Below, piece after piece: positions 2,712 through 14,019 of a DNA stretch of 64,000 nt. Origin of the DNA: a virus (lineage: Duplodnaviria > Caudoviricetes); IMG/VR virus record IMGVR_UViG_3300047539_000055; one strand, 5' to 3'. Position numbers and translations under genes: made by a program. The notes beneath the pieces are model-generated. The model searched no databases. It was not told the origin of the DNA and saw nothing but the letters and a program-made list of their open reading frames with translations. Position 1 is the first letter of the stretch; the number at the start of each line of letters is the position of its first letter.

Positions 2712-3118
2712 TGATAAAAGAAATGAAAGGATTTTGCTTCTTGTTTAGCGAAACCGGAACCGAAGGTGGTTGGTGGGCAATGCAAGAAGATGGCTTCATG
2801 GATAAAGATGGAATCCACTGTAGTTATGATGGATTGCGTGAACTTCAAGAGAACGATGATTTTACCGTGTATACTGAAGACGGAAGTATATTATGGCAAG
2901 GTATCATTCATCAAGATAAGAAAACTAATCTAATTCCACGACAAGTGCTTAACAAAAAAGGTAAGATAGTAAATAGTCGAAAGTGGAAACAACAAATGGT
3001 GTCCTATATGTGGGTACATTGGTTACAAGCCAAGGTTGACCCTGAAGTTTGGAATGAATTATTTGCTGGTAATAAACGATGCTTACTCAAAAGGGAAAAC
3101 GATGAAACAGTATCCTGA
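2711..3118 (+). CDS. Hypothetical protein
   Basis: GGAG RBS before MIKEMKG; FSETGTEGGWWAMQ motif. Confidence 0.7.
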   Translation: MIKEMKGFCFLFSETGTEGGWWAMQEDGFMDKDGIHCSYDGLRELQENDDFTVYTEDGSILWQGIIHQDKKTNLIPRQVLNKKGKIVNSRKWKQQMVSYMWVHWLQAKVDPEVWNELFAGNKRCLLKRENDETVS

Positions 3119-3701
3119 AATCGACGGCAGTAACAAAGCACCAATTGGTGCCTCTTGCTTGGCATTTGTCAAGTATGATGGTAGCAATTTGCGATGGGAA
3201 TGGTCGTCTAAAAAGGGATGGTATAAATTTGGGACTAGAACTCGACTTTTTGATCATACTGATGAAATTTTTGCAGAAGCGATCCCGCTATTTCAGGACA
3301 CACTTGGGCCAGAACTTGAAAGACGAATCAAGGAGATTGAACGTGGTATACAGAATGCAATTGTTTTTACTGAATTTTTTGGTCAAAATAGTTTTACAGG
3401 CATCCACAATCCAACCGATACAAAAGAGTTGAGATTGTTTGACGTAAATCTCTACAAGCGTGGTATAATGAAGCCACGACAGTTTTTGAAGAATTTTGAT
3501 GATTTACCATTTTCCGCACAAGTAGTTTACGATGGAACACTCAACCAGGATTTCATTAGCGATGTTCGTAATGGTGTTTATTCTGTGGTTGAGGGAGTCG
3601 TTGCCAAGGGCGATGATTTTATGTGCAAAATCAAAACAAATACATACTTGACCAAATTGAAGGAGACTTATCATGACGGATGGAAAAATTACTGGGAATA
3701 A
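3102..3701 (+). CDS. RNA ligase 2-like adenylyltransferase (compact)
   Basis: Motif I KYDGSN, then FGTR, FTEFFG, LFDV, EGVV and KIK in canonical ligase order. Confidence 0.7.
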   Translation: MKQYPEIDGSNKAPIGASCLAFVKYDGSNLRWEWSSKKGWYKFGTRTRLFDHTDEIFAEAIPLFQDTLGPELERRIKEIERGIQNAIVFTEFFGQNSFTGIHNPTDTKELRLFDVNLYKRGIMKPRQFLKNFDDLPFSAQVVYDGTLNQDFISDVRNGVYSVVEGVVAKGDDFMCKIKTNTYLTKLKETYHDGWKNYWE

Positions 3702-3939
3702 AGTTAACCCAAAAATTTTGAATCAAATGAATGATTTGATCGTAGAAGTATTGACACTCAAGCAATTGTATTTAGATGGCGATCTAACCTCTGCGTATGA
3801 GCAACTTACAAAAATTGCGGATACTGGCGGTGATATTTGTGATAAACTTGGAGATGAGCAAGACGATGATTTTGATTATGAAGCGTTTAAAAATTTGCCT
3901 CCAAAGAATCCTGATCTACAATTGAAAAGGAAATCATGA
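3673..3939 (+). CDS. Hypothetical protein
   Basis: GGAG RBS; overlapping operon ORF. Confidence 0.55.
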   Translation: MTDGKITGNKVNPKILNQMNDLIVEVLTLKQLYLDGDLTSAYEQLTKIADTGGDICDKLGDEQDDDFDYEAFKNLPPKNPDLQLKRKS

Positions 3940-4169
3940 TTATTAATTTTGAAAGAATTAAAAAAGCCTCAAACGCAATACATCCAAGACAAAAACATCA
4001 TTACGAAATATCGTTTGAATATTGGACGCTTGCACGAACCGAAAGCCGTACATTAGCATTTATTGTTTGGTGGTTGCTTAAAATATGGAGATTCGGCAAC
4101 GGATGTTGCTTGGCAATATTTCTTGACAAACATTATGTTGAAACGATAAGACCAAAAAGAGAATTTTGA
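3936..4169 (+). CDS. Hypothetical protein
   Basis: AAGGA RBS; ATGA overlap. Confidence 0.55.
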   Translation: MIINFERIKKASNAIHPRQKHHYEISFEYWTLARTESRTLAFIVWWLLKIWRFGNGCCLAIFLDKHYVETIRPKREF

Positions 4170-4179
4170 AAGGATAATT

Positions 4180-4452
4180 ATGAAATTGTTAAGTACCCTA
4201 TTACTCATTTTTATATGTGCTTGCGGGAGTTCAAAATCATGGAATCCCGAAGTTAAAAAGGCTGTATATATCCGTCAATATTGTGTTGCGGTTAAAACTG
4301 TAAAAGCAGGAAAAAATTGGAGTGAGTATTCTAACGGCGAGGTTTTTCACGAAGCAGGAAAGTTCTATCAATGTCCAAATATAGATAATCAGATATTTTT
4401 AGGTGATGATGAAATTCAACCAACTGATCCACAAGTAATTTACAATCAATAA
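4180..4452 (+). CDS. Putative lipoprotein
   Basis: MKLLSTLLLIFICAC signal with lipobox-like Cys. Confidence 0.6.
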   Translation: MKLLSTLLLIFICACGSSKSWNPEVKKAVYIRQYCVAVKTVKAGKNWSEYSNGEVFHEAGKFYQCPNIDNQIFLGDDEIQPTDPQVIYNQ

Positions 4453-4462
4453 GGATCAAAAT

Positions 4463-4828
4463 ATGACCACGGAACAAAAAGAGAAATCAACGCAATGTCG
4501 CAGTATGAAATGTGTAAATTGTGGAGATTTGCGAAGTGTCCACATCCTCTACTTCAAGATGATACTGGCGATTATTTTGCACACAAGTTATTTCAAGACT
4601 ATGGCGGATTTACACCTGAAATCAGTAAAAGTATTGGATGGAATCGTGAAAAATAAACTAATCAAATTTTGGCAAGCATGTTGCACTTTTATAAAGGCAT
4701 TTCAAGGTCCAGTTATGTGTGATATTGAACGAGATATGGCTGAAGATCGTAGGAAATGTCTAAAAGACGAAAATTTTAACAACTTTTTGCCATTATTGAC
4801 AAAAAACCCCTTGACAAATGATAAATAA
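4463..4828 (+). CDS. Hypothetical protein (frame uncertain)
   Basis: AAGGA RBS; ORF runs into the downstream promoter. Confidence 0.4.
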   Translation: MTTEQKEKSTQCRSMKCVNCGDLRSVHILYFKMILAIILHTSYFKTMADLHLKSVKVLDGIVKNKLIKFWQACCTFIKAFQGPVMCDIERDMAEDRRKCLKDENFNNFLPLLTKNPLTNDK

Positions 4829-4839
4829 CTGTGTATACT
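4811..4839 (+). promoter_or_regulatory. Sigma70-type promoter for the leader and tRNA array
   Basis: TTGACA (4811-16), 17-nt spacer, TATACT (4834-39). Confidence 0.85.
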
Positions 4840-4860
4840 AATAATTGAAGGTTAGGAAAA

Positions 4861-4947
4861 ATGACGCTATTTAGTACATCTCGCCCCACACTTGCAAACT
4901 ACCGCTCATGCGCTAGTCAATTTGCACCATTTGGTGGAGGCATGTAA
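4861..4947 (+). CDS. 28-aa leader peptide MTLFSTSRPTLANYRSCASQFAPFGGGM of a putative attenuator
   Basis: AGGTTAGGA RBS ~20 nt after the -10 box; stop codon abuts the antiterminator arm. Confidence 0.75.
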   Translation: MTLFSTSRPTLANYRSCASQFAPFGGGM

Positions 4948-4979
4948 GAGGTTTGGATAGTAGTATTTTTCCAGCCTCT
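4947..4979 (+). promoter_or_regulatory. Putative antiterminator hairpin
   Basis: AGAGGTTTGGA (4947-57) pairs with TCCAGCCTCT (4970-79) and sequesters the 5' arm of the terminator. Confidence 0.65.
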
Positions 4980-5008
4980 AGCCAAAAGTTAGAGGCTTTT
5001 GAGTTTTT
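4973..5008 (+). terminator. Intrinsic terminator (attenuator) just before the first tRNA
   Basis: AGCCTCTAGC-CAAAA-GTTAGAGGCT followed by TTTGAGTTTTT. Confidence 0.75.
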
Positions 5009-5022
5009 GGAGTAAAAATTTT

Positions 5023-5100
5023 GGGTCATGGGACTGCTTGGCGTGGTCGTCTCACTTGCAATGAGAAATTCGAAGGGTTCAAATCCCTTATGATCCACCA
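5023..5100 (+). tRNA. tRNA-Ala(TGC)
   Basis: Cloverleaf, G3:U70, loop CTTGCAA, encoded CCA. Confidence 0.92.
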
Positions 5101-5115
5101 AAATTTTGTTGTAAT

Positions 5116-5203
5116 GCAAGTATGGGTGAGTGGCTAAAACCGTTTGTCTGTAAAACAAATGCCCCCTGGGGCTACGAAAGTTCGAATCTTTCTGCTTGCA
5201 CCA
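5116..5203 (+). tRNA. tRNA-Tyr(GTA)
   Basis: Type II cloverleaf, loop CTGTAAA, CCA. Confidence 0.93.
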
Positions 5204-5210
5204 AGTTTTG

Positions 5211-5310
5211 TAGCATGTTCGTCTAAGGCGCTGAATTTCTCGTAAGCCTTGAGAATTCGAGGACATTTATCTCAGGATAAATAATGCAACTTCGCCAACT
5301 GCACATGCTG
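5211..5310 (+). ncRNA. Unassigned structured spacer RNA
   Basis: Closing stem TAGCATGT/ACATGCTG with internal hairpins GAATTTCTC/GAGAATTC and ATTTATC/GATAAAT. Confidence 0.5.
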
Positions 5311-5324
5311 TGAAGAGAATTTAT

Positions 5325-5399
5325 GGGTCGGTAGCTTAATTGGGAAAGCAGTTCTTTCGCAAAGAACAAGATGGAGTTCAACTCTCCCCGTATCCACCA
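5325..5399 (+). tRNA. tRNA-Ala(CGC), irregular acceptor/T stem
   Basis: Loop TTCGCAA, G3:U70, CCA; bulge in the acceptor stem. Confidence 0.8.
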
Positions 5400-5474
5400 A
5401 TTTGCTGGGCGTAAGCAAGTAGGCCACAAATTTATTTGAGTCGATTCGGTGTTCAGCAAAATATTAGAGGTACA

Positions 5475-5654
5475 ATGCGAAGAGAAACAGAAGATGGTTA
5501 TCGCAGAACGAATAGAGAAATGGTGCAAGAACCAAAAGGGTCTGGAATTTGTCCCTGTGACCGATTTTGGGTAAGAAGTGGTTCTAAATGTCCTTTCTGT
5601 GGTTGTAGAATGGATTTGAAGAAGACTATGAAAAAGATTGTTGTAAAAGATTAA
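5475..5654 (+). CDS. Small Cys-rich (zinc-ribbon-like) protein
   Basis: AGAGG RBS; CPC...CPFCGC. Confidence 0.55.
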   Translation: MRRETEDGYRRTNREMVQEPKGSGICPCDRFWVRSGSKCPFCGCRMDLKKTMKKIVVKD

Positions 5655-5658
5655 ATAT

Positions 5659-5733
5659 GGTCCCATAGCTCAATGGACAGAGTACCGGTTTACGAAACCG
5701 ATGATACAGATTCGACTTCTGTTGGGATCACCA
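5659..5733 (+). tRNA. tRNA-Arg(ACG)
   Basis: Loop TTACGAA, CCA. Confidence 0.9.
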
Positions 5734-5760
5734 AGTTTAGAATGAGGATACACTATTACA

Positions 5761-6327
5761 ATGATAAAAATAAGACAATGTAAACATTGTAATGTTCAAA
5801 TAGAAAGTGGAGTTTCAGATTTTGCCAATCATACTAGATGGTGTGCTAAAAATCCAAAGGTTGCAGATTATAAAAAAGATAATGCAACACGAGGACAAAA
5901 AATAATTGCATCAAGATTTGGTACATTTCAAAATTATGATGTAAAATGCAACGTATGTTCTAAATGTTTTCAAGTCAATGAACGAGAAAAAATTTTTCCA
6001 AGTAAGAAAAAATATTTCTGTTCTAAAATATGTGCTTGCTCTGTTGGTGGAAAGGCAAGAGCAATCAAACATTACTTGGCAGACTCAGATGTAAGTTATT
6101 TAGTGGTGGCTTGGAGATATCATGAAAGAAAATGTGTTGTTTGTAAAGAAGTAAATGTTGTTGCTGTTCATCATTTAAATGGAAATCATGATGATAATGA
6201 TCCAAAAAATTTAGTTCCGTTATGTCCTACGCATCATACATATATGCATAGCAGACATAAAACAAAGATTATCAATATAGTCAATGACTATGTTGTAAAG
6301 AAATGGAGTTTGAAATATGGGTCGTAG
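5761..6327 (+). CDS. HNH homing endonuclease
   Basis: CVVC...VHHLNGNHDDNDPKNLVPLCPTHH; N-terminal zinc fingers. Confidence 0.85.
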   Translation: MIKIRQCKHCNVQIESGVSDFANHTRWCAKNPKVADYKKDNATRGQKIIASRFGTFQNYDVKCNVCSKCFQVNEREKIFPSKKKYFCSKICACSVGGKARAIKHYLADSDVSYLVVAWRYHERKCVVCKEVNVVAVHHLNGNHDDNDPKNLVPLCPTHHTYMHSRHKTKIINIVNDYVVKKWSLKYGS

Positions 6328-6398
6328 GACTACTTGGGGTGGTCGCTTTCATGGCATGAAAGATACTCAGGTGGGTTCAATTCCCACACGATCCACCA
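6319..6398 (+). tRNA. tRNA-Ala(GGC)
   Basis: Loop ATGGCAT, G3:U70, CCA. Confidence 0.88.
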
Positions 6399-6400
6399 AG

Positions 6401-6498
6401 TTTGTACGATGATGTGGAAACACATTGACGGTGGTAATCAATTCGGAATGTGAGGGAGGACACCACCCGATAGCACATAAAACGAATCGTCGTACAAA
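6401..6498 (+). ncRNA. Unassigned structured spacer RNA
   Basis: 13-bp closing stem TTTGTACGATGAT/ATCGTCGTACAAA, GAAA-tetraloop hairpin, GTGGT/ACCAC stem. Confidence 0.55.
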
Positions 6499-6502
6499 AA
6501 TT

Positions 6503-6585
6503 TTAGCTCCGAATACTACCTTACGCTTCTGGCCTCTCACACAGTCATGCCATTGAAAGTTGAAGTATTGGAAAATCGGAACTAA
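6503..6585 (+). ncRNA. Unassigned structured spacer RNA
   Basis: TTAGCTCCGA/TCGGAACTAA and AATACT/AGTATT stems. Confidence 0.4.
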
Positions 6586-6590
6586 GTTTT

Positions 6591-6668
6591 AAGCAATTGT
6601 TATGACAAGCAAACCTAGACTTTGAATCTATGGTAATACCAAAAAGTTTTACAGTCATAAAATTGTTT
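6591..6668 (+). ncRNA. Stem element presenting a Gln(TTG)-like anticodon hairpin
   Basis: AAGCAATT/AATTGTTT and TTATGAC/GTCATAA enclose TAGA-CTTTGAA-TCTA. Confidence 0.45.
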
Positions 6669-6675
6669 GTAATAC

Positions 6676-6748
6676 GTCCCAGATTGTTGGGTCATGAGTT
6701 GGATTTGAAGCCAAACATGGACAGGTTCAATTCCTGTTAGGGACGCCA
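6676..6748 (+). tRNA. Degenerate tRNA-like gene (Gln TTG-like, 8-nt loop)
   Basis: Intact T arm ACAGG-TTCAATT-CCTGT, GTCCC/GGGAC acceptor, G73-CCA; TTGG/CCAA stem with loop ATTTGAAG; poor D arm. Confidence 0.55.
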
Positions 6749-6762
6749 AATTTAGTAGTTTT

Positions 6763-6846
6763 GCCCGAATGGTGGAATGGCAGACATAATGCGCTTAGAA
6801 CGCATCGCCGCAAGGCATGGGGGTTCAAATCCCTCTTCGGGTACCA
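6763..6846 (+). tRNA. tRNA-Leu(TAG)
   Basis: Type II, loop CTTAGAA, CCA. Confidence 0.93.
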
Positions 6847-6862
6847 AATTTGAAGGAGTGTT

Positions 6863-7078
6863 ATGAAACTAATTCAGGCACTAATCAAGCAAGGAAATAG
6901 CCATATGATTACTTGGCTACCAGCAGATCGAAGATTGAAACTCGGCTGTGAAATTGAACTTGATAAAGATGTAAACGATAGATGGAAGATTAGTGAATTG
7001 TATATGACCACGGATTCAGAAAATATTCAACGTGGTTGGGGTTTGAATCTTCCAAAGAGTGTAAGAACTGAGTTATAA
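6863..7078 (+). CDS. Hypothetical protein
   Basis: AAGGAG RBS. Confidence 0.7.
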   Translation: MKLIQALIKQGNSHMITWLPADRRLKLGCEIELDKDVNDRWKISELYMTTDSENIQRGWGLNLPKSVRTEL

Positions 7079-7222
7079 AATCTCAGTAGGGGTCGGGCAC
7101 GTAAATCCTCTAGCATTTGGCAGTGATCCGTTCCGTTGTATAATTGGCTGGCCACCTTTGATATGATGCAGGGATTTGAGTAAGTCCTATAAATGTTCCG
7201 TCTAGCGACGGCTTAGTTTTAT

Positions 7223-7296
7223 CAGGGGGTAGTGTAGAGGCAGCATCCAAGTTCTGGAAACTTGTGGCGGAATATCGTAATTTCCTTCCCTGACCA
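7223..7296 (+). tRNA. tRNA-Pro(TGG), atypical
   Basis: C1:G72, A73, loop TCTGGAA (C33, A37), T loop ATCGTAA. Confidence 0.72.
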
Positions 7297-7388
7297 ATTT
7301 TACTGTTGTATGCCGTATCTTTATACTGACTTGGGTAATACGCCTTGTGATCGGTTCAAGACTAACATATGACGGTGGCGCTATAAAC

Positions 7389-7463
7389 GGACTTGTAGCT
7401 CCAAGGTAGAGCGCTTCCCTGAAGAGGAAGGCGGTGCTGGTTCAAGTCCAGTCAAGTCCACCA
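7389..7463 (+). tRNA. tRNA-Phe(GAA)
   Basis: Loop CTGAAGA, CCA. Confidence 0.93.
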
Positions 7464-7482
7464 ATTTTAAGAGGAAAGGAAA

Positions 7483-7629
7483 ATGAAATTGTTCAATCAT
7501 GACGAAGATATACAGTATTTCAGAGAGGTAGCGAATACTGTGCCGAAAAAGAAAGAATATTGTGAAAAAACAATTAAGTTGCTTGAAGAAGCACACGCAA
7601 TTGTAACAGCAAAGAAAAAGTATTGCTAA
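7483..7629 (+). CDS. Small hypothetical protein (48 aa)
   Basis: GAGGAAAGGA RBS; MKLFNHDEDIQYFREV... Confidence 0.55.
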   Translation: MKLFNHDEDIQYFREVANTVPKKKEYCEKTIKLLEEAHAIVTAKKKYC

Positions 7630-7650
7630 ATATCTGTAAATAAATTTTAT

Positions 7651-7727
7651 CCGGGTGTAGCGCAGCCTGGTAGCGCGTTCCGTTTGGGGCGGAAAAGTCG
7701 CAAGTTCGAATCTTGCCACCTGGACCA
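7651..7727 (+). tRNA. tRNA-Pro(TGG)
   Basis: Canonical cloverleaf, loop TTTGGGG. Confidence 0.95.
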
Positions 7728-7776
7728 TTTTGAATCAGTACATTCGAGTTTTTCATCTCCGAGCATAAATACTTGC

Positions 7777-8388
7777 ATGAAAAACAATATGAAAGAAACA
7801 GAATACTATAAAAGTGGGAGACAATTAATAAGTGTTGTAAACGCTGGAAAAATCGGTAATTCTGTTAGTTCGCAAGGAGCAAAAAAATTTAGGGAAGAAT
7901 ATGATACAAACCCAAATATTTGCGCTAACTGTTCAACCGCTTTGAATTTTTACAAACGAACATATAAATTTTGTTCGTCATCATGTGCGGCAACATTTAA
8001 TAACACGCATAAAACAACAGGAACGCGCAGATCAAAACTTGAAACTTTTCTGGAGGAACAAATTCGTAATACCTATCCAAATTTGGAACTACTTTGTAAC
8101 GATAAAACAGCAATCAATTCAGAATTGGATTTTTATTTTCCTGAATTGAATCTTGCCATAGAACTTAATGGTATATTACATTTTGAACCAATTTATGGAT
8201 CAAAAAAATTAGAACAGATTCAAAGTAATGATACTAAAAAATACTTTCTCTGTTCACAAAAGCAAATTAATTTGGCAATTATTGATTCTTCGACCTGTAA
8301 GTATTTGAACCAAAGTTCTAAAGACAAATATTGGAAGTTGATTGAAAATATTATTCAAAAAGCAAAGTTATATCGGGGTATAGTGTAG
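7777..8388 (+). CDS. PD-(D/E)xK/Vsr-like putative homing endonuclease
   Basis: [20 protein letters not shown]; CxxC...FCSSSC; start reassigned downstream of the tRNA. Confidence 0.75.
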
Positions 8389-8447
8389 TGGTCGCACCCA
8401 AATTTCGGGAATTTGTAGAGAGGTTTCGATTACCTCTACCCCGACCA
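8374..8447 (+). tRNA. tRNA-Pro(CGG)
   Basis: Loop TTCGGGA, C1:G72, CCA. Confidence 0.88.
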
Positions 8448-8459
8448 AAATTTAGAAAT

Positions 8460-8535
8460 GCCGTGATAGCTCAGTTGGTAGAGCATTGGTTTTGTAAACC
8501 AAATGTCGCAGGTTCGATCCCTGTTCGCGGCTCCA
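8460..8535 (+). tRNA. tRNA-Thr(TGT)
   Basis: Canonical cloverleaf, loop TTTGTAA. Confidence 0.95.
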
Positions 8536-8539
8536 AAGT

Positions 8540-8701
8540 TTCCGTCGCATTGTGGATGTGACACAAGTGGCTTGGCAGGTGTTCGGGTCATAAGCTCATC
8601 GAAGATTGTTGTGGACACGATAACAATTGGGCGCTCAGGAAGCCAATGAGATAATGATTTCACTGTAATCTTAGCGGATCACAGAATAATCATCGACGGA
8701 A
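8540..8701 (+). ncRNA. Unassigned ~160-nt multibranch spacer RNA
   Basis: Closing stem TTCCGTCG/CGACGGAA; TGGCTT/AAGCCA; ATTGTT/AACAAT. Confidence 0.55.
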
Positions 8702-8709
8702 TTGATTTA

Positions 8710-8783
8710 GCGGGTATATATCAATGGTAGATTAGAACTTTGCCTAAGTTCAGATATGGATTCGAGTTCCGTTACCCGCTCCA
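8710..8783 (+). tRNA. tRNA-Gly(GCC)
   Basis: GCGGGTA/TACCCGC, U73, loop TTGCCTA. Confidence 0.88.
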
Positions 8784-8797
8784 AAGTTTAGATTCAC

Positions 8798-8872
8798 GGC
8801 GCTGTAGCAAAATGGTAATGCAAGGGCCTGCAAAGCCTTTACTCGGTGGTTCGATTCCACTCAGCGCCTCCA
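8798..8872 (+). tRNA. tRNA-Cys(GCA)
   Basis: Loop CTGCAAA, U73. Confidence 0.93.
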
Positions 8873-9092
8873 ATTTGGGCAGAGGAATGATAACGACTGC
8901 CATAGACGACAGCTAAAAAGTGAAGTTTGGAACATCTGAGTAGGCCCACCGAAAAGCCAAATGATGTACTAAGTAAGTTGCGCGGATAATCAAAGCGTTA
9001 TCTTACTGCCATGCATTTTTATTGCAATTATGCATGGCAGGACATAAAATTTAAGGGAATTACGCAGTTAACTCCCTTGGAGAAATGAACCC

Positions 9093-9635
9093 ATGAAACT
9101 CCGGTTTTCCATAGACGAAGCCGAGGCCGCACGTGATGAGTGGGGTTTTAACTGCGGACCCGCAGCGGTTGCCTCTATCTGCGGACTTTCGCTGGCTGAG
9201 TTGCGTCCACATCTGGGTGATTTTGAACTGAAGGGGTATACAAATCCTACCCTCATGGCTCAGATTCTCAAGAGCGTCGGCGCTAAGGTGATCGAGTTTG
9301 GCAGGCTTAACTGGCGGTTTGAGATGGAGCGCACAGGGAGAGCGCCGTGGCCCAGATATGGCCTTGCGCGGGTTCAATGGGAAGGACCGTGGACGAAAGA
9401 CGGTGTGCCGATGGCCGCCCGTTACCGAGCAACGCATTGGGTCGGAGCGAGCTATGTAAACCTAGACAACATTGGCATCTGGGATGTGAACTGTTTGAAC
9501 AACGGGACCGGATGGGTTGGGCTTGGTGAGTGGACTAACACGCTGGTTCCGTGGCTATTGAAGGAACTTTATCCACGCGCAAGTGGCAAGTGGCACTTGA
9601 CGCACATCGTCGAAATCGAACAGCCAAGGGACTGA
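9093..9635 (+). CDS. Papain-fold (C39-like) peptidase, GC-rich insert
   Basis: NCGPAAVA...THWV...WD Cys/His/Asp arrangement; GC visibly higher than flanks. Confidence 0.6.
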   Translation: MKLRFSIDEAEAARDEWGFNCGPAAVASICGLSLAELRPHLGDFELKGYTNPTLMAQILKSVGAKVIEFGRLNWRFEMERTGRAPWPRYGLARVQWEGPWTKDGVPMAARYRATHWVGASYVNLDNIGIWDVNCLNNGTGWVGLGEWTNTLVPWLLKELYPRASGKWHLTHIVEIEQPRD

Positions 9636-9660
9636 AGTATATAAGTCCCAAATTTAATAC

Positions 9661-9734
9661 GCGGTTATGGTGTAGTGGTAACATTTTTGGCTTCCACCCA
9701 AACGTCGTCGGTTCAAATCCGACTAGCCGCTCCA
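9661..9734 (+). tRNA. tRNA-Gly(TCC)
   Basis: Loop CTTCCAC, U73. Confidence 0.93.
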
Positions 9735-9748
9735 AAGTTTAGATTTAT

Positions 9749-9841
9749 GTTGGGGAACTCTAAGTAGATTGAGCGCGGTCTGCAAAACCGTTGAGAACCG
9801 TAAAATCGGTCTAGTGGGCGCAAGTCCCATCCCCAACTCCA
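9749..9841 (+). tRNA. tRNA-Cys(GCA) with long variable arm
   Basis: GTTGGGG/CCCCAAC, U73-CCA, loop CTGCAAA, V arm ACCG/CGGT, T loop CGCAAGT. Confidence 0.78.
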
Positions 9842-9851
9842 TTTTAGAAAT

Positions 9852-9937
9852 GCGTTTGTGGTGGAACGGCATACACGATGGTCTAAGAAGCCATTTCCAG
9901 TAATGGATTGAAGGTTCAAATCCTTTCAGACGCACCA
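9852..9937 (+). tRNA. tRNA-Leu(AAG)
   Basis: Type II, loop CTAAGAA. Confidence 0.9.
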
Positions 9938-9956
9938 AGATTTAGAAAGAAATACA

Positions 9957-10181
9957 ATGGGATATTATGAAGACAATTCGGGTATTGATGATGATGCCAA
10001 ATATCAATGCATGAAACGTGATTGTCTACAAGAAATGTTTGGGTATCAACTATTACCCATTGTTCACGAAGTGCTAAAAGACGATCCAACACACCCATAT
10101 GGTGTAAGTGGAACTGGGAAATTTAAATGTAACATACGAAGATGTTGCTATTGTAGAGGAACGGTGAAGAAAATTGAATAA
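9957..10181 (+). CDS. Small Cys-rich hypothetical protein
   Basis: ORF between tRNAs. Confidence 0.55.
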   Translation: MGYYEDNSGIDDDAKYQCMKRDCLQEMFGYQLLPIVHEVLKDDPTHPYGVSGTGKFKCNIRRCCYCRGTVKKIE

Positions 10182-10356
10182 AGAAAATCTAGTTGCATTT
10201 TTGTATATGTTGATGCGTGATTCACTACCGACAGGAGAAGTTGCAAGATTGGTAGTGGAAGTTGAAAAAACAAAGGGTCAAGAAATAGCATTTACTAGCA
10301 AAGGTTTAGAAGCATACGCAAGAGAATTATCGGATAGATTGCTTTCTGATAAATAG
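10174..10356 (+). CDS. Hypothetical protein
   Basis: LVAFLYMLMRD.LP.G.V pattern typical of small phage proteins. Confidence 0.65.
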   Translation: MNKENLVAFLYMLMRDSLPTGEVARLVVEVEKTKGQEIAFTSKGLEAYARELSDRLLSDK

Positions 10357-10362
10357 TTTTAT

Positions 10363-10452
10363 GGAGAGTTGGGTGAGTGGTTTATACCAAGACTTTGCTA
10401 AAGTCTCGAACCTGAAAGGGTTCCACAGGTTCAAATCCTGTACTCTCCTCCA
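10363..10452 (+). tRNA. tRNA-Ser(GCT)
   Basis: Type II, loop TTGCTAA. Confidence 0.93.
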
Positions 10453-10472
10453 TTTTGAAAAGGAGAAATTTA

Positions 10473-10673
10473 ATGGACAACAGAGAATATTTGAATTATG
10501 AAAATATTGATATTCCAGAATTAACTGATTATCGAGGCACTTTAAAAGAATTCGCTACAATTGTATTAGCGTTAATGAAGGAATATGGTCCTAATGCCAA
10601 CATAAGCATTCACCCAACAATTGACGAAACAGCGGAAGTGTCAATTAGAATTGACAAAAGGCTGAAGAGGTAA
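10473..10673 (+). CDS. Hypothetical protein
   Basis: AGGAG RBS before MDNREY. Confidence 0.65.
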   Translation: MDNREYLNYENIDIPELTDYRGTLKEFATIVLALMKEYGPNANISIHPTIDETAEVSIRIDKRLKR

Positions 10674-10853
10674 ATGAAAGAAGTATGGCAAGTTGATGTT
10701 GGTTATTTTTGTGCAGGAATTATAACTGAAAATGAAAAAGTAACAGTTGCCGCACCGATACTAAATTGGGCTATAGGTAAATCAGTTACTTCTGTTGAAA
10801 CTTGGATAAGAAACAAAAAAGGTAAGATTGTAAAAAGCAAGATGGAAGAGTGA
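10674..10853 (+). CDS. Hypothetical protein (59 aa)
   Basis: GAGG RBS; YFCAGI...AAPILNWAIGK; stop lies inside tRNA-Ser(GGA). Confidence 0.65.
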   Translation: MKEVWQVDVGYFCAGIITENEKVTVAAPILNWAIGKSVTSVETWIRNKKGKIVKSKMEE

Positions 10854-10939
10854 GCGGAATGGCATCGCACCTGCTTGGAAAGCAGACTCACGTTGGATAA
10901 AACCATCGTGTGCAGGTTCAAGTCCTGTCTCTTCCGCCA
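10844..10939 (+). tRNA. tRNA-Ser(GGA)
   Basis: Type II, loop TTGGAAA, G73. Confidence 0.9.
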
Positions 10940-10945
10940 AATATT

Positions 10946-11251
10946 ATGAACATAACACCCAATGCGTGGAAGCATATTGAAGAAATTGTAAATGATAAAT
11001 GCCTCAGAGTTGGTATTAGAGGCGGCGGGTGTTCAGGCTTATCTTATGTATTTCAGCTTGATACTCCAAGAACAAGGGATTTAATTTTTGAACTGAATAA
11101 TATTAAGGTTTTGGTTGATCCAAAATCGAATGTGTATTTGAAAGATGTGACACTTGATTATGAAGAGACGTTGATGCGTCAAGGTTTCAATATTATCAAT
11201 CCACGAGCAACAAAAAGTTGTGGATGCGGATCAAGTTTTTCAATTGGGTAG
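10946..11251 (+). CDS. iscA: Iron-sulfur cluster A-type carrier (IscA/HesB family)
   Basis: GGGCSGLSY and C-terminal SCGCGSSF signatures. Confidence 0.92.
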   Translation: MNITPNAWKHIEEIVNDKCLRVGIRGGGCSGLSYVFQLDTPRTRDLIFELNNIKVLVDPKSNVYLKDVTLDYEETLMRQGFNIINPRATKSCGCGSSFSIG

Positions 11252-11333
11252 TTAATTGTAGCGGTTCTACAACCTTGTTTCGAAAACAAGCGGTACCGAA
11301 AGGTATGGAAGTCGGCATTTCAGCTACCCGCCA
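11246..11333 (+). tRNA. tRNA-Ser(CGA) with 8/4 cloverleaf
   Basis: 8-bp acceptor GGGTAGTT/AGCTACCC, 4-bp T stem, 6-bp D stem, loop TTCGAAA, G73. Confidence 0.82.
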
Positions 11334-11396
11334 TTTTAGGACTTATCAAATTCGATTCCTCGTCTTGCATAAATACATATAGGAGAATAATTTTAT

Positions 11397-12098
11397 ATGT
11401 ATTATTTGATTTACGAAACAACAAATTTGATAAATGGAAATTTTTATGTTGGTGCTCATCAAACTAAAAATTTGAATGATGGTTACTTAGGGTCAGGTAA
11501 ATATTTTCGTCATGCATTAAAGAAATATGGAGACTCAAACTTTTCTCGTAAAATATTATTTGAATTTGATAATCAACACGATATGTTCGTCAAAGAGAAT
11601 GAAATTGTTGATGAAGAGTTTGTATCTCGTAAAGATACTTACAATATTAAACTGGGCGGAAGTGGAGGATTTGATCATCTAAATTATGGGACGGCGAAAT
11701 CAAAAAATCTAAGATTTGATCCAGAATATCAAAAAAATATTTCTTGGCTTTCACATCCAGAGAAATATGGAGTTGCTGATGTTCAAGAATGGAGAAGAAG
11801 AGGACAAAAGAAAATACAAGAATTAATTGATATAGGTAAATTTAATCCTACAAAATGGTTTGATGAACATCCTAAAATACGGCAAAAAGGATTAGACAAA
11901 ATGAACTCGCCAGAGGCGATGACAAAAAGAATTAAAACCTTTCACGCAATGGGGCATCAACAAGGAAGCAAAAATTCACAATATGGAACTTGTTGGATAA
12001 CTAATGAAATAGAAAATAAAAAGATCAAAAAAGAAAATATTTCAGAATGGTTTAATAAAGGTTGGAAATTTGGTCGAATAAAAACGGAGAAGTGCTAG
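11397..12098 (+). CDS. GIY-YIG (Seg-like) homing endonuclease
   Basis: YLIYETTNLINGNFYVGAH...YLGSG...YNIKLGG. Confidence 0.88.
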   Translation: MYYLIYETTNLINGNFYVGAHQTKNLNDGYLGSGKYFRHALKKYGDSNFSRKILFEFDNQHDMFVKENEIVDEEFVSRKDTYNIKLGGSGGFDHLNYGTAKSKNLRFDPEYQKNISWLSHPEKYGVADVQEWRRRGQKKIQELIDIGKFNPTKWFDEHPKIRQKGLDKMNSPEAMTKRIKTFHAMGHQQGSKNSQYGTCWITNEIENKKIKKENISEWFNKGWKFGRIKTEKC

Positions 12099-12180
12099 AG
12101 TGGCTGAATAGACTGGTCCTGAAAACCAGCGAACCTGTGAATAACAGGTTCCGTGGGTTCAAATCCCACCTTCTCCTCCA
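12086..12180 (+). tRNA. tRNA-Ser(TGA)
   Basis: Type II, loop CCTGAAA (C33). Confidence 0.88.
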
Positions 12181-12192
12181 ATACCAAAATGT

Positions 12193-12459
12193 ATGAAAAA
12201 GAAATTAGCTGACACTTTCGATAAAAACGGAACACCAATCAACAAGGGCGATCTTGTGTTTTTTAATCTTTGGTCTGTGCGTTCTTCTACATGCGAAAAA
12301 ATAGTTTTAGGCAAAATTAAAAGGATTGATGGCGCGTACATATTTGTTCAAAATGTAAAAAATAAAAAAGATATTTCAGAGTTGTACTCAACTGAAATTG
12401 AAAAAGCCAGTGATGAAAAGGCAATGTTATGGATGTTTGAGAATGTTATGGATGTTTGA
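12193..12459 (+). CDS. Small SH3/KOW-like paralog-family protein
   Basis: DKNGTPINKGDLV...SDEKAMLWMFEN. Confidence 0.7.
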   Translation: MKKKLADTFDKNGTPINKGDLVFFNLWSVRSSTCEKIVLGKIKRIDGAYIFVQNVKNKKDISELYSTEIEKASDEKAMLWMFENVMDV

Positions 12460-12505
12460 GAATAAATAAGTCCTTTAGAATGAGAAAATAAATTTTGGTT
12501 TTTAC

Positions 12506-12534
12506 TTGCTTTTTAGACCGATCTGCTGTATACT
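12506..12534 (+). promoter_or_regulatory. Sigma70-type promoter before the two CAT tRNAs
   Basis: TTGCTT, 17-nt spacer, TATACT. Confidence 0.65.
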
Positions 12535-12574
12535 ATATATAGTTCTATTGAATGCAAGGAAGCATAAATATTAT

Positions 12575-12650
12575 AGCGGGGTGGTAGCGTAGGTCATACA
12601 CTAGGCTCATAACCTCAGAGACAAGGGTGCAAATCCCTTCCCCGCAACCA
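12575..12650 (+). tRNA. tRNA-Met(CAT), initiator-like
   Basis: AGCGGGG/CCCCGCA with unpaired 1:72, loop CTCATAA. Confidence 0.8.
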
Positions 12651-12656
12651 ACTTTT

Positions 12657-12732
12657 GCCAGTGAGGACGAAGTGGATAGTCGCAGCCCTCATAAAGCTGT
12701 CGTAGTTGATTCGAGTTCAACCACTGGCACCA
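12657..12732 (+). tRNA. tRNA-Met/Ile2(CAT)
   Basis: GCCAGTG/CACTGGC, loop CTCATAA. Confidence 0.82.
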
Positions 12733-12747
12733 ATTTAGAAAGGCAAT

Positions 12748-12963
12748 ATGTATAACGTACAACAAGCAATAGACGAATCCAATAAAATGCGATCATCTGG
12801 TTGTATATGTGATCCTCTTAGTTGTTCTAGTGCGATACCTCCAAAATGTCCAGTGCATTGTTCTTGCATGAAAAATGGACGAGCAATTCCAAATAGCAAA
12901 AAGATAGATGGTCAATGCAAAATTTGTGGTAATTGGCCTCTCTATAACGAAAGCGACTTATGA
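12748..12963 (+). CDS. Small Cys-rich hypothetical protein
   Basis: CIC...CPVHC...CKICG. Confidence 0.6.
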   Translation: MYNVQQAIDESNKMRSSGCICDPLSCSSAIPPKCPVHCSCMKNGRAIPNSKKIDGQCKICGNWPLYNESDL

Positions 12964-13208
12964 TCCTCTTCAAAGGTTCTCCCAAACCAAAAGATGGCGA
13001 AGTAAAAATCACAGAAAAATTTGCGTTTTTGCCAAAGCAACTCAAAATTGCCTACAGCGTATATGATCATGACGGCTGGCACTATCAAGCTATTATATGG
13101 CTGGAACGCTATGTTGAAACTAAACTATACCATCGTGATGGACAATATTGGCATTTGATGAAACGTGAAAGATACAATGACGCTGTTCTAAATAAGTTTG
13201 CGAGTTGA
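12960..13208 (+). CDS. Hypothetical protein
   Basis: KFAFLP...IIWLERY pattern; ATGA overlap. Confidence 0.65.
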   Translation: MILFKGSPKPKDGEVKITEKFAFLPKQLKIAYSVYDHDGWHYQAIIWLERYVETKLYHRDGQYWHLMKRERYNDAVLNKFAS

Positions 13209-13771: not shown

Positions 13772-14019
13772 CGACACAAGGTTACGAAGTTCTGGCGCGA
13801 TTGCTAAGTGTTGATCCATTATATCAAATAAAAATTGCTGAAACATATTACATTACTACTACACTAATTGAACCTCATAGTTTTATATGGGATATGCTAA
13901 AAATTCGTGGAAAGAATAACCATTTAAAATCATTCGCTATTATTGCATCATCCCACACAGTAAGAGGCGTATGGAAGAAAGCCTGTAAAGTTTTGAATGG
14001 CAAGGTTAACAATGTTTGA
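13759..14019 (+). CDS. Hypothetical protein, paralog of 682..897
   Basis: Shared motifs with 682..897. Confidence 0.65.
   Translation: MQKVTTQGYEVLARLLSVDPLYQIKIAETYYITTTLIEPHSFIWDMLKIRGKNNHLKSFAIIASSHTVRGVWKKACKVLNGKVNNV

Follow-up and report, generated by a model that had tools for sequence, protein, structure and literature searches.

What controls the transcription of a phage tRNA array is the question raised by a stretch of viral DNA of 64,000 nucleotides (IMG/VR record IMGVR_UViG_3300047539_000055; the whole stretch is referred to here as the window), in which a candidate promoter, a small reading frame and a hairpin precede a long series of tRNA genes. To our knowledge, the regulation of phage tRNA genes is essentially unstudied. 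A literature search found no description of attenuation control of tRNA genes and, as the original prediction for this locus had also supposed, no attenuator for phage tRNA arrays. The current debate is about why phages carry tRNAs, with codon compensation set against escape from tRNA-targeting defences (PMC10264068, PMC11555353, PMC11464382). From sequence comparison and RNA folding we consider it likely that a ribosome-mediated (leader-peptide) transcription attenuator heads this tRNA operon, and that the phage probably makes the tRNAs of the array only when ribosomes decode the leader codons slowly.

The tRNA array and the elements that precede it

The major elements of the locus, all on the plus strand, are as follows:

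4811–4839, + strand: sigma-70-type promoter, TTGACA-17-TATACT (-35 hexamer at 4811–4816, 17-nt spacer, -10 hexamer at 4834–4839)
4847–4860, + strand: purine-rich predicted ribosome-binding region in a short 5' UTR (GAAGG at 4847–4851, AGGA at 4854–4857)
4861–4947, + strand: leader ORF (uORF) of 28 codons, from the ATG at 4861 to the stop at 4947, with the frame kept in relatives
4973–4997, + strand: predicted intrinsic terminator hairpin (regions 3 and 4) of 10 bp, 5 of them G-C
4998–5007, + strand: T tract of the terminator, TTTGAGTTTT after the stem, kept in relatives
5023–12180, + strand: the tRNA array proposed to be controlled, with 17 tRNAs called by ARAGORN and confirmed by Rfam

The original prediction had described a promoter, a ribosome-binding site, a 28-codon ORF and a 10-bp terminator hairpin with its T tract 15 nt before the first tRNA, and each of these elements was recovered in silico at these positions. 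The promoter is the top sigma-70 match within 3500–13000, with 11 of the 12 consensus positions, and an alignment of the six homologous cassettes shows no variation in its -35 hexamer, spacer core or spacing. It is important to note that sites resembling promoters are in general about as numerous in 3500–13000 as chance predicts (29 found versus 28 expected), and the site at 4811–4839 is therefore credible only because it is conserved. A phage-wide promoter type was considered and rejected, the motif being without convincing recurrence in the window. Within the promoter spacer, at 4820–4829, there are stop codons in two of the three frames that end an upstream small gene, and the promoter therefore overlaps the end of that gene; the frames of these stops vary between relatives. 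The purine-rich GAAGG/AGGA segment before the ATG at 4861 forms a modest predicted ribosome-binding site that is poorly conserved in the relative L001, and its AAGG motif is kept in five of six relatives. The terminator (dG -14.6, z -5.1) is the strongest terminator-like site in 3500–13000, and the gap between the end of its T tract and the first tRNA, which begins at 5023, is 15 nt.

The 17 tRNAs of the array are those for Ala (three), Tyr, Arg, Leu (two), Phe, Pro (two), Thr, Gly (two), Cys and Ser (three), with small ORFs scattered among them. Two further tRNA-like Rfam matches, at 9749–9837 and 12578–12643, are without an ARAGORN call; one is to the tRNA-Sec model at 40.5 bits, which is below the cut-off of 47, and the other is to the tRNA model at 30.3 bits. 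Because of these two matches, the array may total 18–19 tRNAs. A second near-consensus promoter-like site (11/12) is located within the array at 7117–7144, upstream of tRNA-Phe (7389) and near a short hairpin at 7198–7211; no convincing leader ORF was seen at 7117–7211, and the site may be an internal promoter of the array. Three ORFs that sit between tRNAs (5761–6327 and 7684–8388 in the window and 11907–12455 in the relative L008) probably encode homing endonucleases: the L008 ORF has HNH domains on record, and the ORF at 5761–6327 has an HNH-like His/Asn motif and gave no match in Pfam.

The window comes from an uncultured jumbo phage, and its MCP region resembles that of Rak2/121Q/PBECO4-type and other jumbo phages. 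Pfam searches with nine neighbouring proteins gave no match. One neighbouring gene (3102–3701) encodes a 199-aa protein that many jumbo and huge phages keep beside their tRNA arrays; it has 609 homologues at E <1e-30. One relative carries PF09414 and a JGI record names one "RNA ligase"; the window's own 199-aa protein had no match in Pfam, and it may be related to tRNA repair.

Homologous cassettes and the match between leader codons and tRNAs

With the 199-aa protein, which lies ~1.1 kb upstream, as an anchor, five relatives that share the cassette were found (L001, L071, L072, L073 and L074), and all six cassettes, including that of the window, have a promoter, an in-frame leader of 28–40 codons and a terminator. 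A uORF with predicted alternative hairpins upstream of tRNA arrays, which the original prediction had proposed should be looked for in related phages, is present in all five, and the 28-codon ORF that it had described has an in-frame counterpart in each of them. Differences in leader length among the relatives are multiples of three, the conserved Tyr, Cys, Ala and Phe positions of the leader show synonymous third-base changes, and in a consensus fold of the six the terminator stem has compensatory changes on both sides at three positions. The spacing from stop codon to stem is 21–25 nt in the window, L001 and L072, 24 nt in L014 and 28 nt in L008. An exact-pattern scan of viral contigs for the terminator of the window gave no match, and a degenerate pattern matched only the L001 contig.

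Many other tRNA arrays are without such a cassette. There is none at the other arrays of L001, which lie upstream of the homologous one, and none was found in XacN1 and LR745208. The scanner found no cassette in the cultured jumbo phages Phosso, XbC2, Kaldavass and PBECO4, and among the cultured phages checked there was none with a cassette.

Several unusual tRNA calls were observed in the related arrays. Just past the terminator of L071, the sequence at 5572–5645 looks like a tRNA with an insertion that was missed by ARAGORN, the first called tRNA being located 160 nt beyond it. The upstream array of L001 (2956–3883) has the anticodons tta and cta (twice), which are of suppressor type and could read stop codons. 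ARAGORN also called four-base anticodons (cacg, accg, ctgg) at 13973–14050 in L001, 7236–7313 in L074 and 1207–1284 in L023, and these may be frameshift-suppressor-like tRNAs, intron-containing tRNAs or artefacts. In L076, a His-tRNA-synthetase-like gene (10991–11527; PF13393, PF00587) is present in the later part of the tRNA array.

The strongest argument for an attenuator, and one that was absent from the original prediction, is the match in silico between the codons of the leader and the tRNAs encoded downstream. Under standard wobble pairing, the 17 tRNAs of the array can read 23 of the 27 leader codons that follow the start codon, relative to a background of 42% of codons in the long ORFs of the window. 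Fifteen of the 17 tRNA species are sampled, including every isoacceptor for Ser (three), Leu (two) and Gly (two); the two unsampled tRNAs are Ala cgc and Pro cgg, and the four codons that have no strict-wobble reader in the array are CCC, AAC, CAA and the last ATG. When compared with all 27-codon gene segments, the count of readable codons has P = 1.2e-3 and the species coverage P = 1.2e-4, and the leader tops both measures among the 368 small ATG ORFs of the window. Given the peptide, readable codons are also preferred over their synonyms (8 of 9 informative codons versus 4.8 expected, P = 0.03). The leaders of the relatives match less well than that of the window, with 16–28 cognate codons per leader, and sample 12 of 13 species in L001, 12 of 14 in L074 and 13 of 16 in L073.

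Leaders in other lineages differ in composition along with their arrays. L008, a 65% relative, has the cassette in front of Trp, His, Arg, Gln, Asn and Lys tRNAs; Lys, Arg, Asn, Gln, Trp and His are abundant in its 28-codon leader, the middle of which consists of exactly those residues. A marine AT-rich phage (L014/L036) has a Lys/Phe/Ser/Trp-rich leader before Lys, Phe, Ser and Trp tRNAs. The huge phages LR756502, LR745206 and LR756511 have many sub-arrays, each with its own uORF and a 10–17-bp terminator. Among these, a leader that contains seven consecutive Gln codons precedes four Gln tRNAs, Pro/Asp/Gln leaders precede Pro, Asp and Gln tRNAs, Ser/Arg leaders precede Arg and Ser tRNAs, Glu/Tyr leaders precede Glu and Tyr tRNAs, Ile/Gly/Ala leaders precede Ile, Gly and Ala tRNAs, and Ser/Leu/Tyr leaders precede Ser, Leu and Tyr tRNAs. 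When the leaders and arrays of 16 scanner-defined cassettes were compared, 15 of the 16 arrays had their own leader in first or second place among the 16, with every second-place rank resulting from the homologue in a sister phage, and this diagonal was reached by 0 of 100,000 permutations (P at most 1e-5). The sole exception in the ranking, the scanner cassette L058 with its 6-bp stem, was rejected as a false positive. Such covariation of leader and array would be predicted by a decoding sensor and not by a peptide function or by RNA structure. Nested cassettes were also observed in LR756502 and LR745206 (L047, L048 and L050–L053), where a Pro/Asp/Gln leader would gate a block whose Gln part carries its own Gln-only attenuator, an arrangement that suggests hierarchical control.

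These data bear on what the leader would sense. The switch could be real and yet report global translation capacity or the timing of infection, responding to any ribosome slowing or to amino-acid starvation and not to the supply of specific tRNAs. The leader of the window is indeed multivalent, since apart from its two Met it contains 12 amino acids, and the whiB7 uORF attenuator is reported to answer many translation stresses (PMC10274678). However, huge phages place leaders of one and two amino acids before matching sub-arrays, and the leader prefers readable synonymous codons, and on balance we regard a global sensor as improbable.

The tracking of downstream tRNA sets by non-homologous leaders, including a homopolymeric Gln run, is also not predicted under the view that the small ORF forms a transcription unit of its own, with promoter and terminator, for a micro-protein, and that leak-through or other promoters supply the tRNAs with no sensing involved. 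We consider this view very improbable. The peptide is in-frame with synonymous changes, as for any coding gene, and the second promoter-like site at 7117–7144 could serve the array, but the stop codon of the ORF is part of the strand whose pairing competes with terminator formation.

Competing pairings and the proposed switch

The folding analyses involved three further predicted elements:

4866–4882, + strand: region 1, predicted anti-antiterminator, formed by early leader codons in MFE folds of the ribosome-free RNA
4947–4957, + strand: region 2, predicted 5' strand of the antiterminator, starting at the last base of the stop codon
4955–4972, + strand: small spacer hairpin between the stop codon and the terminator, the core of the antiterminator in the consensus fold

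According to the original prediction, a strand that begins at the stop codon can pair with one that overlaps the 5' arm of the terminator, and folding identified such a pairing. The strand 4947–4957 pairs with 4971–4980 and extends to a predicted hairpin at 4947–4979 (dG -12.2, z -3.5; equalled in 0 of 200 shuffles). The terminator 5' arm (4973–4982) is common to antiterminator and terminator, and the two pairings are mutually exclusive in silico. The spacer hairpin changes sequence on both sides in L074 and L073, and the whole leader (4845–5022) folds with a z of -4.15 versus shuffles. Pairing of region 1 with region 2, that is, of early codons with the stop-codon region, appears in MFE folds with a weak z of -1.64, and clear covariation was not seen for it; the classical 1:2, 2:3, 3:4 scheme, which would apply if the early codons pair with the stop-codon strand, is thus weakly supported by the modelling.

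In folding of the kind that had been proposed for this locus, the competing stop-region hairpin was predicted, and the terminator of the window remained at equilibrium when the ribosome footprint was masked. In equilibrium folds of the full leader of the window, the terminator was retained with P ~0.98 at nearly every ribosome position, the lowest value (0.69) being near the start codon. Masking a ribosome footprint abolished the terminator only in L008, at codons 11–17, and left it in place in the window, L001 and L014. Since the terminator persists at equilibrium, any read-through would have to be kinetic, as in trp. More informative than masking was to leave the 3' arm out of the fold, which corresponds to the state while the polymerase is still transcribing. 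When folded in this way, the 5' arm pairs with the strand spanning the stop codon in the window, L001, L071, L072 and L074, and in L073 its partner is 7–20 nt upstream of the stop codon. These alternative structures have dG values of -16 to -23 kcal/mol versus -14 to -21 for the terminators, and across the six window-type cassettes their P values against shuffles of the 5' strand are 0.002–0.16. There is a resemblance between the stop-region strand and the 3' arm of the terminator, and both change together across relatives (AGAGG:CCUCU in the window corresponding to CUAAGG:CCUUAG in L071, L072 and L074), with the register of the antiterminator shifting between relatives. In 11 of 15 scanner cassettes, which take only the window from the window-type family, the predicted partner of the 5' arm is no more than ~20 nt from the stop codon (z down to -4).

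An alternative in which the region yields a non-coding leader or small RNA that is structured and stops at a terminator both constitutive and partly leaky, with the ORF incidental, would agree with the leader fold (z -4.15), with the dominance of the terminator at equilibrium and with freed attenuator RNAs that can act in trans elsewhere (PMC6614838), but it is very improbable given that the indels of the relatives are multiples of three, that conserved residues have synonymous third-position changes and that RNA structure leaves the codon-to-tRNA matching unexplained.

The leader-peptide attenuator that we favour has the trp/his-type geometry that was first claimed for it, with promoter, leader, terminator and an antiterminator at the stop codon, and this claim is now backed in silico by conservation and by the codon match. 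In the proposed mechanism, host RNA polymerase would start at 4811–4839 and transcribe the 28-codon leader, and a ribosome would translate this leader, which appears to be written in codons decoded by the tRNAs encoded downstream. With fast decoding, the ribosome would arrive at the stop codon and, with that codon in its A site, would cover the strand 4947–4957, judging from the known size of the ribosome footprint; the terminator at 4973–4997 would then form and transcription would stop before the first tRNA. If cognate charged tRNA were scarce, the ribosome would lag within the leader, leaving the stop-codon region free to pair with the 5' arm of the terminator (hairpin 4947–4979), and the polymerase would enter the array. 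Slow decoding at any represented codon would result in read-through. The new tRNAs would restore decoding and so shut the array off, and the circuit would be self-limiting, since the leader is decoded by the very tRNAs that the circuit produces. Leader translation, its kinetic coupling to transcription, and the direction and size of the response are parts of this scheme that we infer.

Several situations could trigger the switch, including phage codon use that the tRNA supply of the host does not match, a loss of host tRNAs in the course of infection, amino-acid starvation and tRNA-cleaving defences (PMC10264068, PMC11555353, PMC11464382). That the switch serves as an on-demand countermeasure to tRNA-destroying defences, as the original prediction had it, is speculative, such defences being one of several situations to which it would respond. 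A broader view, which we advance tentatively and hold to be possible but doubtful, is that phage tRNA arrays are composed of autonomous demand-sensing modules, in which a sub-array would be on only when the tRNAs that it replaces go missing, for example when they are cut by host anticodon nucleases, by PARIS, or by retron or Cas effectors. In that case the leader would detect tRNA-targeting immunity in real time, and the array would serve as a counter-defence that is inducible and limits itself.

If the proposed attenuator is correct, the phage gauges the speed of decoding for the codons of its own tRNAs and pays for those tRNAs on demand. The purpose of each tRNA block would also become experimentally readable, the leader being a list of the tRNAs expected to run short. 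In addition, the cassette offers annotators a simple signature, and synthetic biology compact, codon-specific sensors.

Comparison with known attenuation systems

Attenuators of this type have long been known from enterobacterial amino-acid operons, and include trpL, hisL, pheL and leuL and the multivalent thrL and ilv leaders. Like these, the phage cassette has a promoter, a short leader with regulatory codons and an intrinsic terminator, its predicted antiterminator uses the 5' arm of the terminator, and a ribosome at the stop codon would lead to termination; multivalent leaders are likewise known among them. Unlike these, the cassette is phage-borne and would control tRNAs instead of biosynthetic enzymes, its leader samples up to 15 tRNA species, and its product would decode the leader and thereby give direct feedback. 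Leader-peptide attenuators have been modelled (PMC1183508) and pheL has been surveyed (PMC3082878). A search of 4000–13000 against Rfam, at E up to 1, identified no amino-acid leader family (His, Trp, Thr, Leu, Phe) and no T-box, and gave, besides tRNAs, only four weak, chance-level matches to unrelated families; the phage cassette thus differs from the Rfam leader families in having no sequence relationship to them.

The pheST operon of E. coli, which encodes phenylalanyl-tRNA synthetase, has an attenuator with the pheM leader. Here, as proposed for the phage, an operon of the translation apparatus is under a codon-rich leader and a terminator, whereas pheST encodes a synthetase, involves a single amino acid and is on a bacterial chromosome. 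T-box riboswitches bind uncharged tRNA directly and do so without a uORF. The phage cassette is like them in that tRNA status would be sensed, with a terminator/antiterminator switch before translation-related genes, and unlike them in having a uORF.

A uORF-based attenuator is also present at whiB7/wblC in Actinobacteria, where stalling in the uORF is believed to cause antitermination, the uORF coding sequence is reported to set which starvations are sensed, and knock-down of tRNAs and synthetases is reported to be activating (PMC10274678). In contrast to the phage cassette, that attenuator controls a transcription factor and is alanine-enriched, and the codons of its uORF are without a match to downstream gene products. 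The proposed mechanism is known trp/his-type attenuation, and its new element is the target, the tRNAs themselves, with a direct feedback loop; if true, it would extend classical attenuation to genes whose products close the loop directly.
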